From contig CAXUUL010000077.1 of NCBI GenBank assembly GCA_964255285.1, positions 1 to 36,903 on the forward strand: a DNA stretch of 36,903 nucleotides, in the 5' to 3' direction. Position 1 is the first letter of the stretch. Each line of letters begins with the position of its first letter. Positions 3,363 to 33,324 of this stretch are shown piece by piece. The translations under genes and the position numbers were made by a program. A model generated the notes under the pieces. That model had not been told where the DNA came from. It saw only the letters and a list, made by a program, of their open reading frames with translations, and made no database searches. Source of the DNA: Ionaspis alba (lineage: Eukaryota).

Positions 3363-3517
3363 ACAACAACAACAACAACAACAACAACAANNNNNNNNNN
3401 NNNNNNNNNNNNNNNNNNNNNNNNNNNNNNNNNNNNNNNNNNNNNNNNNNNNNNNNNNNNNNNNNNNNNNNNNNNNNNNNNNNNNNNNNNATGTCTCCTC
3501 TCGTAGTTGACTAAATC

Positions 3518-3560
<43 letters not shown>
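3363..3560. repeat. (ACA)n microsatellite spanning a 100-N assembly gap; left flank duplicated across the gap
   Basis: ATGTCTCCTCTCGTAGTTGACTAAATC(ACA)n occurs at both 3336 and 3491. Confidence 0.9.
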
Positions 3561-7724: not shown

Positions 7725-8347
7725 ATTGGGGAGGCTCATCAGCCAGATTGAAGTTCAGTACAGAGGCTGCATACTTGCGAGAGAGTGTGTGAGAATGGGG
7801 AAGGAAAAACAAAAGAAGAAGCAACGATAGCTTCACTGTCGACAAGAAAGTTGAGCTGTTACATTCCACGCGACGGGAATTGCAAGTCAGCAAAATTAGG
7901 GTTTAGATCCCGCAGCTGCATGCAACTTTAATTAGCCGCACACGCAGGTCCCTGACCAATGACAGCAGCCCAGACAACGATTTCGACTTGACTCCTGGTT
8001 GATCGTACCTTGCTAGACCTGCTCTAGTCCTACTGCCCTACCTAGTATCTGATGCGCTCACCGCCTCTTCAGAAAGTTCCTATCATTGCGATTTTAGCCG
8101 CCTTGGTACGTAAATCTGGAGAAGTGTCAATAATACTAATACCACGAATTTCGAAAAGCTTTCGCAACGTGGCTCTGTTTTCGTCTGGCACACTAGTTTT
8201 CCAGCAGACGCATGTCTCTCTCATCTAGTTGAGATATTCAATCCCATCACAAGGGTAAATCGGTTCTGCTTGGTTGCTGAGAGCGTATAGCATCATATCT
8301 TATCCTTGTTTTTCTTGCAGAAGAATCGCATAAAAGATCGTTCTGAC

Positions 8348-9618
8348 ATGTTCGATGACGAAGTAGATGAGGAGTTGCTGGCTCTTCTGCGCAAAGCTCT
8401 TGGTAGAAATAGCTTGGAGACTCAAACCGTTGCCGATACAGGCGTCCTCGAGGATGCTCAATTTATCTACGATAACGCGATTGATGTTGCGATCGACTCA
8501 TCCGCCACAAAGGCAGCAGCAGCTTTAATTTGGGAAGCAATGCAAGAGAAAGGGTATTCTTTCAAAACGTGGTCAAGCCATGAACTCCATCCAAAGGGCA
8601 AGACCGAAGCGACTGTGGATTTCATCTTCACGATGGATCTACTGAATTTCTCGTTCTGGTCCGAGAACAGTGTTCGTGAAGGCTCGGTTGTTGAATATCG
8701 TGGGACGAAGTGGACCGGTTATTGGAGTCTCGTCGCTGCTTTGCAGCGCGCCATTGACGAAGGTGTGTAATGGTTGATCCGACTTCCCATCCCCTGATTT
8801 TGACCCTCCTGTGGAAGCTTAGGCATACCTATTACGGACTCGGACTTCTGGCAGGATGAAAATGAGTGTACCGACGATGTGTTACGATATGTGTTTAGAT
8901 GCAATACAGCCGAACAATTTCCACTAATGGAAGAAAGAATTTCCTGCTTGCGAGAAGCTGGAAGAGTCATGTATACTGTAAGTTTGCTGTTTCTTCGATT
9001 CTCAGTGAGTAGTATTCATGTATTGGCCCAGCGATTCGGTTGCAGCTTTTCAAATTGCATAAAGGAGGCCCGGGGATCCGCCCCTGCTCTTGTGAATCTG
9101 ATTGCCAATTGCTTCCCCTGCTTCAGAGACGAGAGTAAGTTTGAGGGTAAGGTCGTGCGTTTCTACAAACGAGCGCAGATATTGGTAGCAGACTTGTGGG
9201 CATGTTTTGAAGGAGAGGGATATGGACGGTTCGATGACATAGACAAAATCACAATGTTTGCTGGTCAGTCACGAATGTCTGTATCTGAAAGCTCCTCGTG
9301 AGCGACTAATCAATGTGATTAGACTATCGAATACCCCAGATGCTCTGCTCCCTAGGCTGTCTGCAATATAGCCCTTCGCTTGACCATCATATTAAGCAGC
9401 TCAAGCAGATCAGAGCCGGGCATTCATGGGAGGTTCAGCTGCGAGGCTGTAGCATCTGGTGCGTGGAGCTCTTGAAACGTCAAATAATACATCATGAGCC
9501 CGCTGCACCGGTGAACGCCATACTGATTGACTTCTTCCTCTACGACACCATCAAAGAGAGTGACAGGGATAGAGTTCCGTCGCAGCCTCACCATCGAACC
9601 CGCAGTATATGGTACTAA
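8348..9618 (+). CDS. QNG1: Queuosine salvage hydrolase (DUF2419 / QNG1 / C9orf64 family), multi-exon
   Basis: DFIFTMDLLNFSFW, GYWSLVAALQRA, FPCFRDE...FYKRAQILVADLW, ITMFADYRIPQML (across an intron), NAILIDFFL, HHRTRSIWY. Confidence 0.92.
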
Positions 9619-10066: not shown

Positions 10067-11835
10067 TCATCTGAATAGTCTTGCCCGCCCCCTCCCGCGA
10101 CCTCCTCGCGCTCCGTTTCTTCCGCTCCAAGGTTTGCCGCGGTGTCCTCCCAATGTCCCACGACTTGCAGCTTCTCTGGATTGGAAATCTGCTTGTCTCC
10201 TAGTTCGTTCTTCTTCACTGATATCAAAAGGATTTGGAATTTGCAACAATTCACAGAACGCTGACGTCTGAGGATTGGTATACTCCTTTGGCTGCTCTCT
10301 AGTCCCCGTATCATCAGTCGGATTGAAGGTCGGAGCCGATATGGAAAAGTTCTCCGGTATTATCATTTTATTACAAGCCACTAAGTGCTCCTCTACCCAT
10401 TGTTCTTCGGCAGCAATAAGGGGCCGATACACGGCTTCCCCTCGATTATGTGGTGTTGAAGATCTCCGATCTCCAAGTATAAGCTCGGAGGCAAAGGTCC
10501 TAGTAATAGCAAGCCACTCTTTATCGTAAGAGAGACGGTAGGGAGTACTCGAGGATGCCGACGTCTCGCTGACCGGATTGATCTCCAGAACCTGAAGAAA
10601 TTTTCGATTTGGCAAACATTTGTCTAGAGCAAGGAATTTGGTTGAACGGTTGACGATCGCTTGTGGGCACGGTAATGAAGTAGGTGTTGCCCGGTGTGAT
10701 TTTGGGGCAAAGGAAACGGGAAGTAGTGCTCGCACATCTGCAGACACGCCAGAGCCATCCGCATTGACAGCATCAGACCTCCCGCCGACGAATACTTCCG
10801 ATATGCCTGCGTTCACCAAATCGGAAGAGTGATCTGTATTGCTCTGGCTCCAGCTATGGTCTTTGGTCTGCTGTGATGAGGGACATTCTGGGGCTGGACC
10901 AGTATCAAAGTCATCGAGATCAAGATCGATTTCCTCTGTGTTAGTCGACTTGGTCATGGTGCTTTGAACTCCACGAGCGTTATGGGTAACTCTCATTGCA
11001 ACACCGTTTTCTTCTGTTAAATGATCGATGACTGAGGAATACTTGCAATGTAGGTGCGCAGAGAACCAATAAGGCGGACGCAGCCGATCCAAAACATACT
11101 TTGCTGCAGCACTACCAAGAGTGTTGGATCGAGCATCTGCTTCAAAAAGATCTTTCTTGGCGAAGAGGGTTTTCCAATCTCCCAGCCATTCCACTCCTCG
11201 CGGCCAATCGTGGCTAAGGCCAACATCGACCTGGGATTGTATATTGAGAAGCTTCCTAACATCCAGTTCACGAACATGGTAGACACTTTTGACGTCATCT
11301 TGGTCGTACGGTAGCCGCTCGTAATGAGGCTTGTTGTAAGAATAACCCTTCCATATTCCAGAAAGCCCGGCTATTCGTAGTGGACCTAACCCGACCACGT
11401 TCGCCGCTCCGAGGTAGTAGATATTTGGAGCCACCCAACCTCCGTAGTAAAGCTCGAAGAGGTGATTGCTTGCCTCGTGGTTACCTCCAATAAAGATAGT
11501 TAGATATGGCGCTTTCCGCACACCACTGTAGTACTCATGGAAATCTCCGATTTCTCGATACTTCATCGGCACAGACAGACAATTTAGGTCGTAGGAGTTT
11601 CGGACTGCCTTTAATATTCAGTTCACATCTGTCTAGGATTGCCTGGAATTACTAAGAGTACCTGAAAATCCCCTCCAATGATCAGAAGGTCAATGCCATT
11701 CCAGTGGTTTTTCTCGCAGGTCATCTCAATTGATGCATAAATGGCCTTCAAGGTGCCATGGCCCTGGAACTCCGGTAAGTCCATGCGAAATCAAACTTTG
11801 GAAATACTCACGCAGCCTTCGACTGCAATCCGCAT
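10067..11835 (-). CDS. DBR1: RNA lariat debranching enzyme
   Basis: MRIAVEGC|GHGTLKAIY...DLLIIGGDFQ|AVRN...FIGGNHEASN...SHDWP...WFSAHLHCKY...TKFLALDKCLP; metallophosphoesterase motifs plus the DBR1 C-terminal domain. Confidence 0.96.
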
Positions 11836-12200
11836 GTTTGGTGCAGGTTTTGGAAGACGCTATCAAAACATCGGGGTTGCCAGCACCTAGCCCTTGCCCA
11901 GGTTCGTGCATTCAGTACAGGGTGATTCTATACTTGGGTTTGGCTATTGGGCGAAAAGATCGTTGCCGCGAACAGTTGGTGTGGGTTGAGAAAGAAATGG
12001 TTACCACAAGCAAGAATGCGATCTCAAGCTCCCATACCATCCAACAGTCTGCCGAAAGGTCTCGGATTTTAATCGGATTTAGTGTAGATCATCTTATCTC
12101 TTAGCGAGCATCATTCTGCAAACGAGGATCCACCCATCACGTACCTGTTACTTGACTTTTGATGCCAGAGTCGAGTAGACTTACCGAGCCTGCGCTGATC

Positions 12201-12728
12201 ATGGCCTCCGACACCCGAGCACATTTCCTTAGGTCTGCTGGTCATCTACTCGCCGCCAGAGCACCGGCCACTTCGGCCTCCTTGATGTATCAAGCCATTC
12301 AAGTGACCAGTAACTCTTTACTCTCGAAGACTTTAGAAGAGGTCTGCCCGACCTGTGGAAGTGTATCCATTCGCGCTTGGAACTCAGCATCTCGGATCAT
12401 TATACCTCGTTCTGGGAAGCAAATGGTATCAGCTCAACGAGTCACAACCAACAACAGTAAGGCAAGCAAGAGTGTTACTTCTCACGTTCGAAGGTTGAAC
12501 ATCTCTTGCATGCTGTGTGGACGATTTAGGCCACAGACTCTATCAAGACTACGAATTGCGAATGCGTCCGACAATACTAGACCAGCACTCTCGTTACCCA
12601 CTTCCGCAACTCAAAAATCACTTCAATCCCGTATGAGAACAGGTATGGGAACCCCACTAGAAAGAGCCTCACCTAGGTCGGTGCCTCTGCCTTCAGACGA
12701 CTTGAATCTTATGGACCTACTGAAGTGA
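12201..12728 (+). CDS. RNase P/MRP Rpr2/Rpp21/Snm1-like zinc-ribbon protein
   Basis: N-terminal 'R.HFL..A.HLL...AP.TSA.L' helix, two CxxC pairs (CPTCG, CMLCG) and C-terminal LNLMDLLK, the layout typical of fungal Rpr2-domain proteins. Confidence 0.65.
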   Translation: MASDTRAHFLRSAGHLLAARAPATSASLMYQAIQVTSNSLLSKTLEEVCPTCGSVSIRAWNSASRIIIPRSGKQMVSAQRVTTNNSKASKSVTSHVRRLNISCMLCGRFRPQTLSRLRIANASDNTRPALSLPTSATQKSLQSRMRTGMGTPLERASPRSVPLPSDDLNLMDLLK

Positions 12729-19562: not shown

Positions 19563-20300
19563 GTGCGGTGAAGAGGCGAATTGAGCCTGGTAATGACTGG
19601 ATGAGGTATGGTTGGCATCTTCGCACCAAACGCGAGGGCGTACGTAGCACAAGTCACGGGCATTTCATGGCGCATGTGATTGAAATCTGAGGTAAAGAGA
19701 TAAGGGTCTTCGTTTGGAGCATGTATTTTGCATTAGTGGTCACTACTCTTGGTGAGCAGAAGCCTTTAGCCAACCAGTGCCAATGTCTAACACCAATCTG
19801 CTCCAACCACACTGCAGCTGTAAATCTAACAATGTTCAGATATCTGCGTTGCAACTTCCGTCGATCAACTGGCTCCAGTGCTCATATCATGCTCTCATAA
19901 CCGAGACGCATTTCACGGCCGATGAACCGCATCTGCAGAGTGTATAAGCTTTGGCCCCAACACAAGAGTCATATCAGACAATACCGCTGCCGGGGCTTCG
20001 GCTGACCCGTGTTGAGGCTTTGAATACGCTCTATCCAAGCAATTCCCTGCAGCGCTGTCATGTACGGAGAAACGGAGGACGCTCGAGATCCAGGCGTAGA
20101 GTCTCTGTAAATTTACTGTATTTAGAACTCTGATAAGAAGTCCTCCTCATGTGGCCCCCAAGGCTTTTATCTCGACCTAGCACACGTCGGACGGAAAGAT
20201 GGGACAGTCTCACCGATCAGTCCTCTAGAATTTGCCAAGGTCATTTTAACATTTTCTTACCCCACTCAATGTTCAGGTAGTGAACTCATATGTTTCCGAA

Positions 20301-20306
20301 TATAAA
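20301..20306 (+). promoter_or_regulatory. TATA element upstream of tRNA-Leu(AAG)
   Basis: TATAAA starting 32 nt before the mature tRNA 5' end, the usual TBP/TFIIIB position for fungal tRNA genes. Confidence 0.55.
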
Positions 20307-20332
20307 GAAGTTTACGACTACAATGTAGCCAT

Positions 20333-20489
20333 GGTGGAATGGCCGAGTTGGTTATGTGAGTCCGTTTGTTGTCACAAGTTGCAACTTTCCTTTGCTAATT
20401 TGATGAAATAGGGCGCTAGGTTAAGGTCAGCTTAACATTTCTCTATCCTAGTTCCGAAAGGAGCGTGGGTTCGAGTCCCACTTCCATCA
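20333..20489 (+). tRNA. tRNA-Leu(AAG) with two introns: spliceosomal-type 20356-20411 (between nt 22/23) and canonical 20427-20445 (37/38)
   Basis: Spliced: GGTGGAA TG GCCGAGTTGGTTAT|GGC G CTAGG TTAAGG|T CCTAG TTCCGAAAGGAGC GTGGG TTCGAGT CCCAC TTCCATC A. All stems pair, A and B boxes are intact, and T7 follows at 20490-20496. Confidence 0.92.
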
Positions 20490-20766
20490 TTTTTTTAAGC
20501 CTCACATTGCATCTTATGATGTGGCCTGAGGTTCAAACCTTCGCCCCGTCAATCACCACAGCCGGTGTAAATGATAATACGTGCATTTTGGCTAGTTTGT
20601 ATTTCGGCTGTCGCGCCAGGCTCGTCTATGTAAAACGCACCAAAATGTTGTTGTCAGATATGGGATTTCCAAATAGATATGAAGGGAGCCAATGCGACAA
20701 CTACTCGTAGTACTTGTGATCAAGAAAAGAGCCGGATCCCTCTAGTATTACCTGCGTAGTACCGCT

Positions 20767-21217
20767 ATGTCGTCTTATGGGTTACGTGCAGTTGTGACTG
20801 GAAACGATGATTCTCTTGAGAAGACATACTTTGAGGAGCAGCGGACCACCTTGTTGGGTGAGATCGCCAACGTAAGGTCCACCAAAGTAGTGATCAGATT
20901 TTACTGCGGCTTGCTAATCTTCCTAGAGCCTTGAACACGTCTTGCAGAACATTAATAAGCTCAATCGCTCCCTCGAGGGCGTTATCGCGGTTTGTTTTTG
21001 ACAGTCTGTTTGTACTGATTGCAGAATTGACTAAAATGCTGGACACCAGGTCGGAAATGAGTTTGGATCCGTTGAAGCCCTATGGTCACAGTTTGAGAGC
21101 GTCATGGTAAAGGACTCGGGCGTTGACGACGAAGGAACGGATAGTGGAGGAGAAGGGGCGGATGGACGTGGTGACGGAGATGGTGGTGCTGCGAAGGACG
21201 CAAGCCAGAGTAAATAG
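20767..21217 (+). CDS. DAD1: DASH/Dam1 complex subunit Dad1 (absent from the ORF track)
   Basis: Exons 20767-20871, 20927-20989 and 21050-21217 give ...KTYFEEQRTTLLGEIAN|SLEHVLQNINKLNRSLEGVIA|VGNEFGSVEALWSQFESVM. Confidence 0.93.
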
Positions 21218-30885: not shown

Positions 30886-31818
30886 AACTGTGGACTATTT
30901 TGAACTGTCCAGCATACCGATTGATCTGAACGAACAGAAATCCTTTATTAGAGCGGCACAGTCAAGGTCACCTCTGTCTCAAGCCGTCTTACAGATCCAG
31001 GTTCTGATTCAAGCGGCTTACAGAAGCTCCTTGCCTCGCTCACCTCCAAATACGTTGTGGTGCATCACAAACCGCCACGAGAACATTGGCCAGGTTCCGG
31101 CCGAGGCTTATCCGTTTTCACAGTATTCATTCTTTTCTGGTCAACCGGTGAGGTCATGATACTCGGATATCGATTGTCTGCAGTAGCCTACCTCTATTGT
31201 TTCATTGAAGCTCTTCTGTTGCTCAGATGATCTGGTGAACTCTCAAGAACGATTGGCAGTACAGATGCATCAACGGTAAGAGAGGCTGTACCAATCCTAC
31301 CCACGGAGACCGAGCTCATATTCAGGCGCTTTCCAACGTTTGACGCGTGCCCAACCCGAAGGCGGAATACACCGAGCTCAAAGATCAGATTGATCATATA
31401 GAGGGCAAGGATTCATCCGCAAGCAGGAGATCAGCTAATCACTGCCAAATCACTGTGTCGCGCCCAAAGCGTCTAAGCAGTAGTGATGCGGAGATTATCA
31501 AGTTCAAATTGGATCAACTATTCCTTCGGATGATGCTTGATCACTGTAATTGTGGAGCCTGCACCCTCGTTGCAGTATATCTAGGACAAGGCATATAAAA
31601 ACACCGTAGAGGACATAAGGAACGATTTGTTCTTCCCTCGAGACAATTCGAAACAGATCTAAGAGTCACAAACGGCACAATCATATGTCTTTTAGGCCGT
31701 GTAGTGGAAAAATTCGGAGCCGAACAATGCAATTATCGAACAACGCTCAACACCTTGTGCGTATTACCTTATTCCACCAGTAGTGAATCTCACTCGTAGG
31801 CCGAAAACTTTGTGGGAT

Positions 31819-33324
31819 ATGCATACCACCAATATACATATCCTAGCGCCAAAATCCCTAGTCAGAATCATCAAAGTGAATCTAGAGTCTCGAAAGAAGT
31901 TAGACAAGAGGAGGAACATCACGAATGTGGATAGCGTTCAAGACTTGGAGTCCTATGTTGTAGTACCCAAGATTGCGGCAACATCGGTGGGTAAATTGAT
32001 ACCCACCACTCATCCACTAGATATCCGAGAAGATACTCCTCTTGAAGATATTTTGAAAGCTCGAATCGACGAACTCGTCATTGGCTTTGGGGTCACAAGT
32101 CATTCCTCGCAACTTTCCTTTGCTATTTCAAAGGACTCACCATGCAGCAATTCTACTTTGTCTACGGATCTTTCGAAGGGCCATCTTGTCCCGGTCATCC
32201 AACGATGGTTTATGGATTTGCCTCTTGAAATCAGAGCAACATTTCCTCTGCCGGAGCCAGATTTTCTGGCCCTCGGTGCCTCGCCGTACACGATCTATCC
32301 TCCTCTTCTGCTTCTATCAACGAACGCACGGAAGGTAGAACGGTGGCAACTTCTTTTACGGCGATCATCAGACCTGCACCTCGGCGATCTGTATGATCGG
32401 ATATGCAAGCAGCTGAAGGTCACGCATGTCGCTCTTAATGGGCCCATACCACTCGTCTGCCCTTCTTCTGATTTCCAAAATATTCTCCGCTCCCCAATGT
32501 CCTTGATACCTCTTCACGGAGATTTTGGCCCCGTAGGAGCTCAGTTTAGCCAAGCATATGAGGCGGCATTGTGGGTGTCAACACGCCAGTATGGTGTCGT
32601 TCAAACGTGGGCCCCGCTTCACACAATGTTCTCACGTGGCAATATCTCCGAGAAAGCTCGCATCCTCACCGACATGCCGGGACTGACAGCGGGACATCAG
32701 GATAGAAACTCCACAGAATGTAGCGCCGTCGATCTCTATGCCGGAATAGGGTACTTTGCGTTCTACTATGCGAAGGTCGGAGTGAAAAAGGTCTTGTGCT
32801 GGGAGATCAATCCTTGGAGTGTGGAAGCGCTCGGCAGGGGGGCAACGTTGAACGGTTGGCAAGCCGTTCGTGCGAGCGAATCCGATTTCACAGGGGAGAA
32901 AGCGGATATTGGGGATGAGGAGTTCTTGGTCTTCGAGGAAGACAATCAGAATGCTTCCCGCAGAATTGAGAAGATAAGGACACAATTGCCGCCGATTAGA
33001 CATGTCAACTGTGGATTCTTACCAAGCTCGGAGAGGAGCTGGAAGACCGCTGTGGAGGTTCTCGATCCACTGCAAGGAGGGTGGATACATGCACACGAGA
33101 ACATCGCCATGACGGAAATTGACAGCAGAAAAGCACATATCGTGCAGATTTTCGACAACTTGGTGAATCTCGGTCCACAAAAGCCGCAGCGTAATGTACA
33201 GTGCCAGCACCTCGAACGCGTCAAATCATATGCTCCAGGCATCATGCATTGTGTCCTGGATATCCAGATCAACCCGCTACCCGACACAATGCCTATGAAA
33301 TCATGGCCACAACCATCCAGCTAA
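31819..33324 (+). CDS. TYW2: tRNA wybutosine-synthesizing protein 2 (SAM-dependent aminocarboxypropyltransferase)
   Basis: YTIYPPLLL, NILRSP, WV...Q.GV.QTWAP.HTMFSRGNISEK.R, VDLYAGIGYF, RHVNCGFLPSS, WIHAHENI, HLERVKSYAPGIMHCVLD. Confidence 0.9.
   Translation: MHTTNIHILAPKSLVRIIKVNLESRKKLDKRRNITNVDSVQDLESYVVVPKIAATSVGKLIPTTHPLDIREDTPLEDILKARIDELVIGFGVTSHSSQLSFAISKDSPCSNSTLSTDLSKGHLVPVIQRWFMDLPLEIRATFPLPEPDFLALGASPYTIYPPLLLLSTNARKVERWQLLLRRSSDLHLGDLYDRICKQLKVTHVALNGPIPLVCPSSDFQNILRSPMSLIPLHGDFGPVGAQFSQAYEAALWVSTRQYGVVQTWAPLHTMFSRGNISEKARILTDMPGLTAGHQDRNSTECSAVDLYAGIGYFAFYYAKVGVKKVLCWEINPWSVEALGRGATLNGWQAVRASESDFTGEKADIGDEEFLVFEEDNQNASRRIEKIRTQLPPIRHVNCGFLPSSERSWKTAVEVLDPLQGGWIHAHENIAMTEIDSRKAHIVQIFDNLVNLGPQKPQRNVQCQHLERVKSYAPGIMHCVLDIQINPLPDTMPMKSWPQPSS

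Follow-up and report, generated by a model that had tools for sequence, protein, structure and literature searches.

Can the spliceosome serve a tRNA gene? Spliceosomal introns are known outside mRNA genes, both in rRNA genes and in the genes for the snRNAs U6, U2, U5 and U1 (PMC5855946), where the passages on such introns do not mention tRNA. The question is raised by one locus in a 36.9-kb stretch of DNA (the window), where the D arm of a tRNA-Leu(AAG) gene is interrupted by 56 nt with the signals of an mRNA intron. An earlier note, made from the letters of this DNA, had proposed that the spliceosome removes this insert. Here we consider what the gene is, what the insert resembles, where it came from, and which explanation fits it best.

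A tRNA-Leu(AAG) gene in three pieces

The locus at 20333-20489, on the forward strand like all features of the gene described here, is a class II tRNA-Leu(AAG) gene in three pieces, 157 nt long with its two intervening sequences. Exon 1 (20333-20355, nt 1-22) comprises the 5' strand of the acceptor stem, the 5' strand of the D-stem and the D loop, and contains the A box TGGCCGAGTTGG (20340-20351). It is followed by the 56-nt insert with spliceosomal-intron signals (20356-20411), which separates nt 22 from nt 23. Exon 2 (20412-20426) supplies the 3' strand of the D-stem, the 5' strand of the anticodon stem and the anticodon AAG through G37. An ordinary anticodon-loop intron of 19 nt at 37/38 (20427-20445) pairs with the anticodon loop. 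Exon 3 (20446-20489) contains the 3' strand of the anticodon stem, a long variable arm, the T arm with the B box GGGTTCGAGTCC (20467-20478), the 3' strand of the acceptor stem and the discriminator A. A run of seven T, the Pol III terminator, follows at 20490-20496, and TATAAA at 20301-20306, 27-32 nt 5' of the tRNA start, may serve Pol III as an upstream promoter element. The two boxes were assigned by what we take to be their consensus forms; their spacing is widened to about 127 nt. The coordinates proposed earlier for the tRNA, the insert and its branch motif were confirmed on the window sequence, as were the anticodon intron, the T7 run and TATAAA.

A separate repeat was noted 186 nt upstream of the anticodon region. 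The segment 20237-20257 resembles the anticodon together with the start of the anticodon intron (20423-20444), with 16 of 18 bases identical, and the extended alignment score of 27 was attained by 1 of 500 shuffles. The repeat could be what is left of an older tRNA fragment, or be due to chance.

As the earlier note had expected, standard finders miss the gene in genomic sequence. ARAGORN called no tRNA in the raw 36.9-kb window, and Rfam at its gathering threshold reported nothing but tRNA-Leu(TAG) at 1491-1585. With laxer settings Rfam gave a misaligned match spanning 20402-20489, which at 28.6 bits stays below the cut-off of 29; the 3' end of the insert, which mimics the tRNA's own 5' end, was taken here as a false acceptor strand. 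When 20356-20411 was deleted in silico, ARAGORN did find a tRNA, and with both intervening sequences deleted it called tRNA-Leu(aag). In intron mode, with the D-arm insert alone deleted, the program chose another placement for the anticodon intron and reported Arg(tct); we regard this as a quirk of ARAGORN. These calls are no proof of the exact boundaries of the insert, since 162 of 169 neighbouring deletions in a grid were also called as tRNA. The whole precursor folds with z = -1.95. Within it, the end of the insert, GATGAAA followed by TAG (20402-20411), can pair with six of the seven bases of the acceptor 3' strand (20483-20489), and could compete with the true acceptor stem.

The boundaries were established by comparison with uninterrupted relatives. 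A metagenome scan with a pattern of the anticodon arm and the T arm returned seven loci, representing four distinct uninterrupted tRNA-Leu(AAG) genes. Three of these (L001, L004 and L005) scored 46.8 bits in Rfam and were called Leu(aag) by ARAGORN; L002, which is cut by a contig end, scored 29.4 bits in Rfam and was not called by ARAGORN. Their anticodon introns of 16-18 nt resemble the 19-nt intron of the split gene. The exons of the split gene align collinearly with these relatives, and where the acceptor stem and the variable arm differ, a change on one strand is matched by a compensating change on the other. Together with the Leu(aag) call after the removals, this bears out the earlier identification, and we conclude from its structure that the split locus is a genuine tRNA-Leu(AAG) gene.

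The D arm of the relatives reads GGTTAT/GGCG, the same junction that in-silico removal of the insert gives. Compared with the relatives, no tRNA base was lost or duplicated by the insertion, apart from a one-base ambiguity at G. The placement exactly between nt 22 and 23, which had been claimed before, thus stands, and the exactness of these boundaries rests on the four distinct metagenome genes. Because the uninterrupted relatives have an identical D-arm junction, the insert is seamless, derived and lineage-specific. Insertion of a DNA transposon or MITE was considered and rejected, as there are no terminal inverted repeats and no target-site duplication, and the junction is seamless relative to the relatives.

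The relatives also count against a working intron. The insert was absent from all four distinct related genes at the seven metagenome loci. One metagenome sample, Ga0265780, contains three different Leu(AAG) loci, so the organism probably has spare Leu(AAG) copies and a dead copy could persist. Both observations favour a different explanation, in which the gene is a recently disabled copy: one tRNA-Leu(AAG) gene among several was broken by a templated insertion, its transcripts stay unspliced and undergo degradation, the likeness to intron signals is a rare coincidence brought up by a large scan, and the exons are perfect only because the event is young.

The earlier note had further suggested that split tRNA genes of this kind could form a hidden class. 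This suggestion found no support. A B-box scan of the window gave no further split tRNA, only the two known genes and three one-mismatch matches, fewer in total than expected by chance. Besides the four relatives, a closely similar tRNA with the same acceptor arm was present at a different locus, on a 12,890-nt contig from run X2 (organism B); this tRNA counts 50 letters against 89 in the window, and therefore lacks the full 56-nt insert. No contig of run X3 (organism C) could be placed on the window. A further X2 contig, of 151 nt and a depth of 2.6, is identical to the window over 19953-20103. This contig probably accounts for much of the 0.40 word share of X2 as carry-over from organism A of the same study, and not as the sign of a close relative.

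Sequencing data support the insert itself. In an independent assembly of the public run X1, which is probably the source sample of the window, a single 377-nt contig corresponding to 20326-20702 spans the insert at a depth of 101 (neighbours 95-133) and is identical to the window across it. No joint that skips the insert was found in X1. An assembly or amplification artefact, i.e., a chimeric patch formed by template switching during library preparation, is in our judgment extremely improbable. The insert combines both strands of one nearby locus (see below), as amplification chimeras do, and X1, the only strong holder of the sequence, may be the very sample behind the window assembly. However, a chimera would neither sit seamlessly in a tRNA gene nor diverge from its template by indels.

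Run X1 also contains a minor form of the region 19700-21200, at a depth of about 28-35 against 93-106. It is 7-12% different in three blocks (19943-20008, 20166-20325 and 20703-20807) and identical in the intervening ones, including the tRNA and both DAD1 introns. Over 20166-20325 there are 17 differing positions and two indels, with differences at 20305-20307, in or adjoining TATAAA, while 20326-20702 is identical. This mosaic pattern could reflect a second strain, an allele or a hybrid. Identity of the two haplotypes across the insert was considered as a sign of constraint and rejected; it is uninformative because 20808-21200, with both DAD1 introns, is just as invariant. The 213 nt from the terminator on (20490-20702) are likewise invariant between the two forms and include a stretch able to form a hairpin, as well as a weak match to a B box at 20530-20540. 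Nothing in Rfam matches this segment, which is probably DAD1 promoter sequence.

Intron signals of the insert

The insert starts with GTGAGT (20356-20361), which fits the 5' splice site GTRNGT. It contains the branch motif GCTAAT (20394-20399), whose branch A (20398) lies 13 nt from the end, and it terminates with TAG (20409-20411), which fits YAG and is the first AG after the branch. To obtain mRNA introns for comparison, genes in the window were identified by Pfam on open frames, and eight introns were kept whose exon ends fitted Pfam coordinates or a clear protein reading; an ORF-flank heuristic and a listing of frame-compatible GT-AG pairs were too noisy to define the set alone. The queuosine-salvage, Ras-like and DAD1 genes contribute two introns each, and the LRR and PAP2/LCB3-like genes one each.

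The eight introns are 47-60 nt long, and all start with GTNNG and end with YAG. A CTRAY-type motif lies 9-25 nt from the end in all eight, although in DAD1 intron 2 it occurs only as ACTAAAA, 15 nt from the end. The length of the insert is the modal length of the local introns. One intron of the Ras-like gene has exactly the geometry of the tRNA insert: it is 56 nt long, with GCTAAT 13 nt before the TAG end. The earlier observation that the insert resembles the mRNA introns of the window in length, 5' splice site, branch and 3' splice site is thus upheld.

How often such a combination arises was counted with a strict signature, defined as a GTRNGT start, CTRAY 9-25 nt from the end and a YAG end. 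Among all 73,696 segments of 56 nt on both strands of the window, the only one with this signature is the insert itself; a looser signature is present in nine. When lengths of 45-62 nt were allowed, six of 1,326,276 segments had the strict signature. These are the insert and five others, which lie at four mRNA-intron sites, in SEN54 (two alternative ends), queuosine salvage, Ras and LRR. The signals of the insert exceed chance.

These results stand against the recently disabled copy, for which at most about 1 in 70,000 of the 56-nt window segments would offer the strict signature, the more so since the insertion spared every tRNA base and the insert has the modal intron length. Nevertheless, the rarity of the signature cannot separate a working intron from a dead intron-like sequence, because both need the same rare insertion. 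The insert also avoids T4 runs, having no run of four or more T, which again counts against a disabled copy. However, 43% of shuffled inserts are T4-free as well, making this weak evidence. By itself the insert has an ordinary fold (z = -0.65), which 49 of 200 shuffles match.

An intron of another kind would be a non-spliceosomal tRNA intron at an unusual position, cut by the endonuclease at a bulge-helix-bulge (BHB) motif as in Cyanidioschyzon merolae, nucleomorphs and archaea. Ectopic tRNA introns of this type have indeed been reported in a eukaryotic nucleus (PMC3728597). The junctions were examined for two 3-nt bulges with the cut sites, a 4-bp helix between them, and flanking helices. The insert junctions form three of the four central pairs, with one pair in the outer and two in the inner helix; the second of the two equivalent cut placements gives only one of four, with two and zero. 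At least three central pairs were also found in 3133 of 20,000 random site pairs (16%), and the 3' junction lies inside a helix in the minimum-energy fold. In contrast, the intron of tRNA-Leu(TAG) at 1527/1543, used as positive control, scored the full motif (4, 4, 2). The claim that the insert lacks junctions of the BHB/Sen type is therefore confirmed by a strict test that the control intron passed, and we consider an endonuclease-cut intron at this position very improbable. The signals of the insert are spliceosomal.

The window also contains several genes for RNA processing, identified by Pfam: SEN54 (1930-2613), which adjoins tRNA-Leu(TAG), DBR1 (10070-11617), the Rpr2 subunit of RNase P (12156-12725), a queuosine-salvage gene (8291-9615) and TYW2 (31705-33321). 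SEN54 is a subunit of the tRNA splicing endonuclease, and DBR1 acts in lariat debranching. The clustering of these genes is taken as coincidence.

A nearby exon as donor

A short-word BLAST search with the insert against the window returned a 17-nt exact match at 32109-32125, together with three more matches within 50 nt. The donor is a 55-bp segment of the TYW2 coding exon (32086-32140, forward strand), 11.7 kb downstream of the insert. Positions 10-46 of the insert align with 32086-32128 in the forward direction, with 34 identities, two mismatches and gaps of 6, 1 and 1. The 5' end (positions 1-13) is the reverse complement of 32129-32140, matching 12 of 12 bases with one extra base, and the 3' end (positions 49-56) is the reverse complement of 32123-32130. 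In this way 53 of the 56 insert bases are traceable to one 55-bp stretch, from both of its strands, in three patches of which two are inverted. The patches have TTTG in common at the first switch.

A 17-nt exact match was attained by 2 of 5000 dinucleotide shuffles, and the local alignment score of 37 by none of 300 (mean 24, maximum 35). The 8-mers at the two ends of the insert occur at just two and three other places in the window. BLAST of the insert found similar sequence elsewhere in the 36.9-kb window only in the TYW2 exon, and no family of sister introns. Two other features were seen along the way. Trinucleotide repeat tracts at 3363-3389 and 3518-3559 gave serial 9-nt BLAST matches at 3-nt spacing, and the insert contains a perfect 12-nt palindrome, AAGTTGCAACTT (20376-20387), made by a 7-nt deletion relative to the donor exon.

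The donor lies in an open frame of 539 codons with homology to tRNA wybutosine-synthesizing protein 2 (TYW2). Every named homologue among the best 120 matches comes from lichen-forming Lecanoromycetes or allied fungi, and identities are 38-57%. When 14 TYW2 homologues were aligned, the peptide that the matching bases encode coincided with a conserved motif. The direction of copying follows from this: because the donor stretch encodes a conserved peptide, the TYW2 exon is the donor and the insert the copy.

As a rearranged copy of the TYW2 exon, the insert is a young insertion of local DNA, and not an old or transposed intron. This donor is the point that the earlier reading of the sequence missed. 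We infer that the insertion arose by template switching in break repair or replication, a mechanism suggested by the patches from both strands of one nearby locus and by TTTG at the first switch. PMC3443670 includes intron gain by filler DNA among the mechanisms that it reviews. That the insert is young filler DNA taken from an exon close by, with 34 identities and two mismatches in its core, also counts in favour of a recently disabled gene copy.

Insert and donor differ at few places, and one of these is the branch motif, which is CTAAT in the insert and CTATT in the donor. In the TYW2 alignment, the donor codon at this site specifies a conserved isoleucine-or-valine position. When the base of the donor is restored in the insert, no consensus branch motif is left. 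Among all 444 single-nucleotide changes, four create a branch motif in the right zone. Since insert and donor differ at about six to eight places, such a gain would occur by coincidence in about 5-7% of cases. That the motif was gained through one of so few differences counts against a disabled copy, and it is a hint of adaptation, though suggestive only. In summary, seamless position, traceable source and splice signals indicate that the insert is a young, templated, intron-like insertion.

A candidate spliceosomal intron in a Pol III gene

How would a tRNA be made from this gene? In the scenario that we prefer, a tRNA-Leu(AAG) gene of a lichen-type ascomycete gained 56 bp seamlessly between nt 22 and 23, probably when break repair or replication switched templates and copied a patch of the TYW2 exon. 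Pol III would transcribe all 157 nt, directed by A and B boxes that are intact and continuing to the T7 run; the insert contains no T4. In the resulting precursor the disrupted D arm would prevent folding of the tRNA body, and for this reason the Sen endonuclease presumably could not measure its cut sites. The spliceosome would then excise the insert at GTGAGT and TAG. This would allow the D arm to form, after which Sen and tRNA ligase would excise the 19-nt anticodon intron.

Removal of the insert by the spliceosome is plausible, and the chance that the insert is a working spliceosomal tRNA intron is, in our estimate, a little short of even. Besides the uninterrupted relatives and the probable spare copies, the stretched distance of about 127 nt between the A and B boxes speaks against it. 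The prior is also low, because a search of the full-text literature, whose coverage leaves out most papers in subscription journals, found no spliceosomal intron in a tRNA gene. A preprint on Mesodinium was rejected as a precedent, as the matched phrase, 'non-spliceosomal tRNA introns', is not relevant here. The same missing precedent favours the recently disabled copy, to which we assign a considerable probability that still does not amount to an even chance. The fuller version of the preferred scenario combines several steps, namely that this is the first spliceosomal intron found in a tRNA gene, caught near its birth, built from a patch of a neighbouring exon, provided with a branch site by a one-base gain, and removed before Sen acts. 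We advance it tentatively, as possible rather than probable.

If the insert is spliced, maturation of one tRNA would depend on two unrelated splicing machineries acting in a set order, and the range of non-mRNA genes with spliceosomal introns, which in PMC5855946 comprises snRNA and rRNA genes, would extend to tRNA. It would then be clear that functional genes escape standard tRNA annotation, and split genes of this kind would be overlooked systematically by tRNA finders. The spliceosome in lichen-type fungi would serve transcripts of all three nuclear polymerases. The locus is of interest whether spliced or not, as an intron-like sequence of consensus quality that can be traced base by base to both strands of a nearby exon. 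With a branch motif created by one difference from the donor, it is an unusually clear case of intron origin. How new introns come about has long been an open question, and few recent gains have a source that can be identified (PMC3443670).

The closest parallels are found in other non-coding RNA genes. The U6 snRNA introns of Schizosaccharomyces pombe and other fungi resemble the insert in having GT...AG ends and a branch site within a structured non-coding RNA gene (PMC5855946). U6 is a Pol III transcript and is nevertheless spliced by the spliceosome, and many U6 introns are species-specific insertions (PMC5855946). Two differences are apparent. Unlike the snRNA introns, the insert has a host RNA that also needs the Sen endonuclease pathway, and whereas the snRNA introns are thought to originate from reverse splicing near the catalytic centre (PMC5855946), the insert is a DNA copy of a coding exon.

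The rDNA introns of lichen-forming ascomycetes (PMC8527467) belong to the same fungal group as the insert, judging by the named protein matches. A spliceosomal intron from lichen rDNA, 57 bp long compared with the 56 nt of the insert, is removed from Pol I transcripts in yeast (PMC8527467), and in both cases the host gene is not transcribed by Pol II. For the rDNA introns removal from the Pol I transcript was shown experimentally, whereas for the tRNA insert removal from a Pol III transcript is a prediction.

Like the insert, the BHB introns of C. merolae interrupt nuclear tRNA genes outside 37/38 and add a second intron (PMC3728597). They rely on the tRNA splicing endonuclease, whereas the insert fails the BHB test and carries spliceosomal signals. 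Intron gains in coding genes, on the other hand, share with the insert a seamless junction, the lack of a target-site duplication and an origin from other genomic DNA. The insert differs from these gains in having a tRNA gene as host and an identifiable donor, a nearby exon copied from both strands. Compared in this way, the insert may belong with the ectopic spliceosomal introns of non-mRNA genes, as a member whose origin is unusually transparent.
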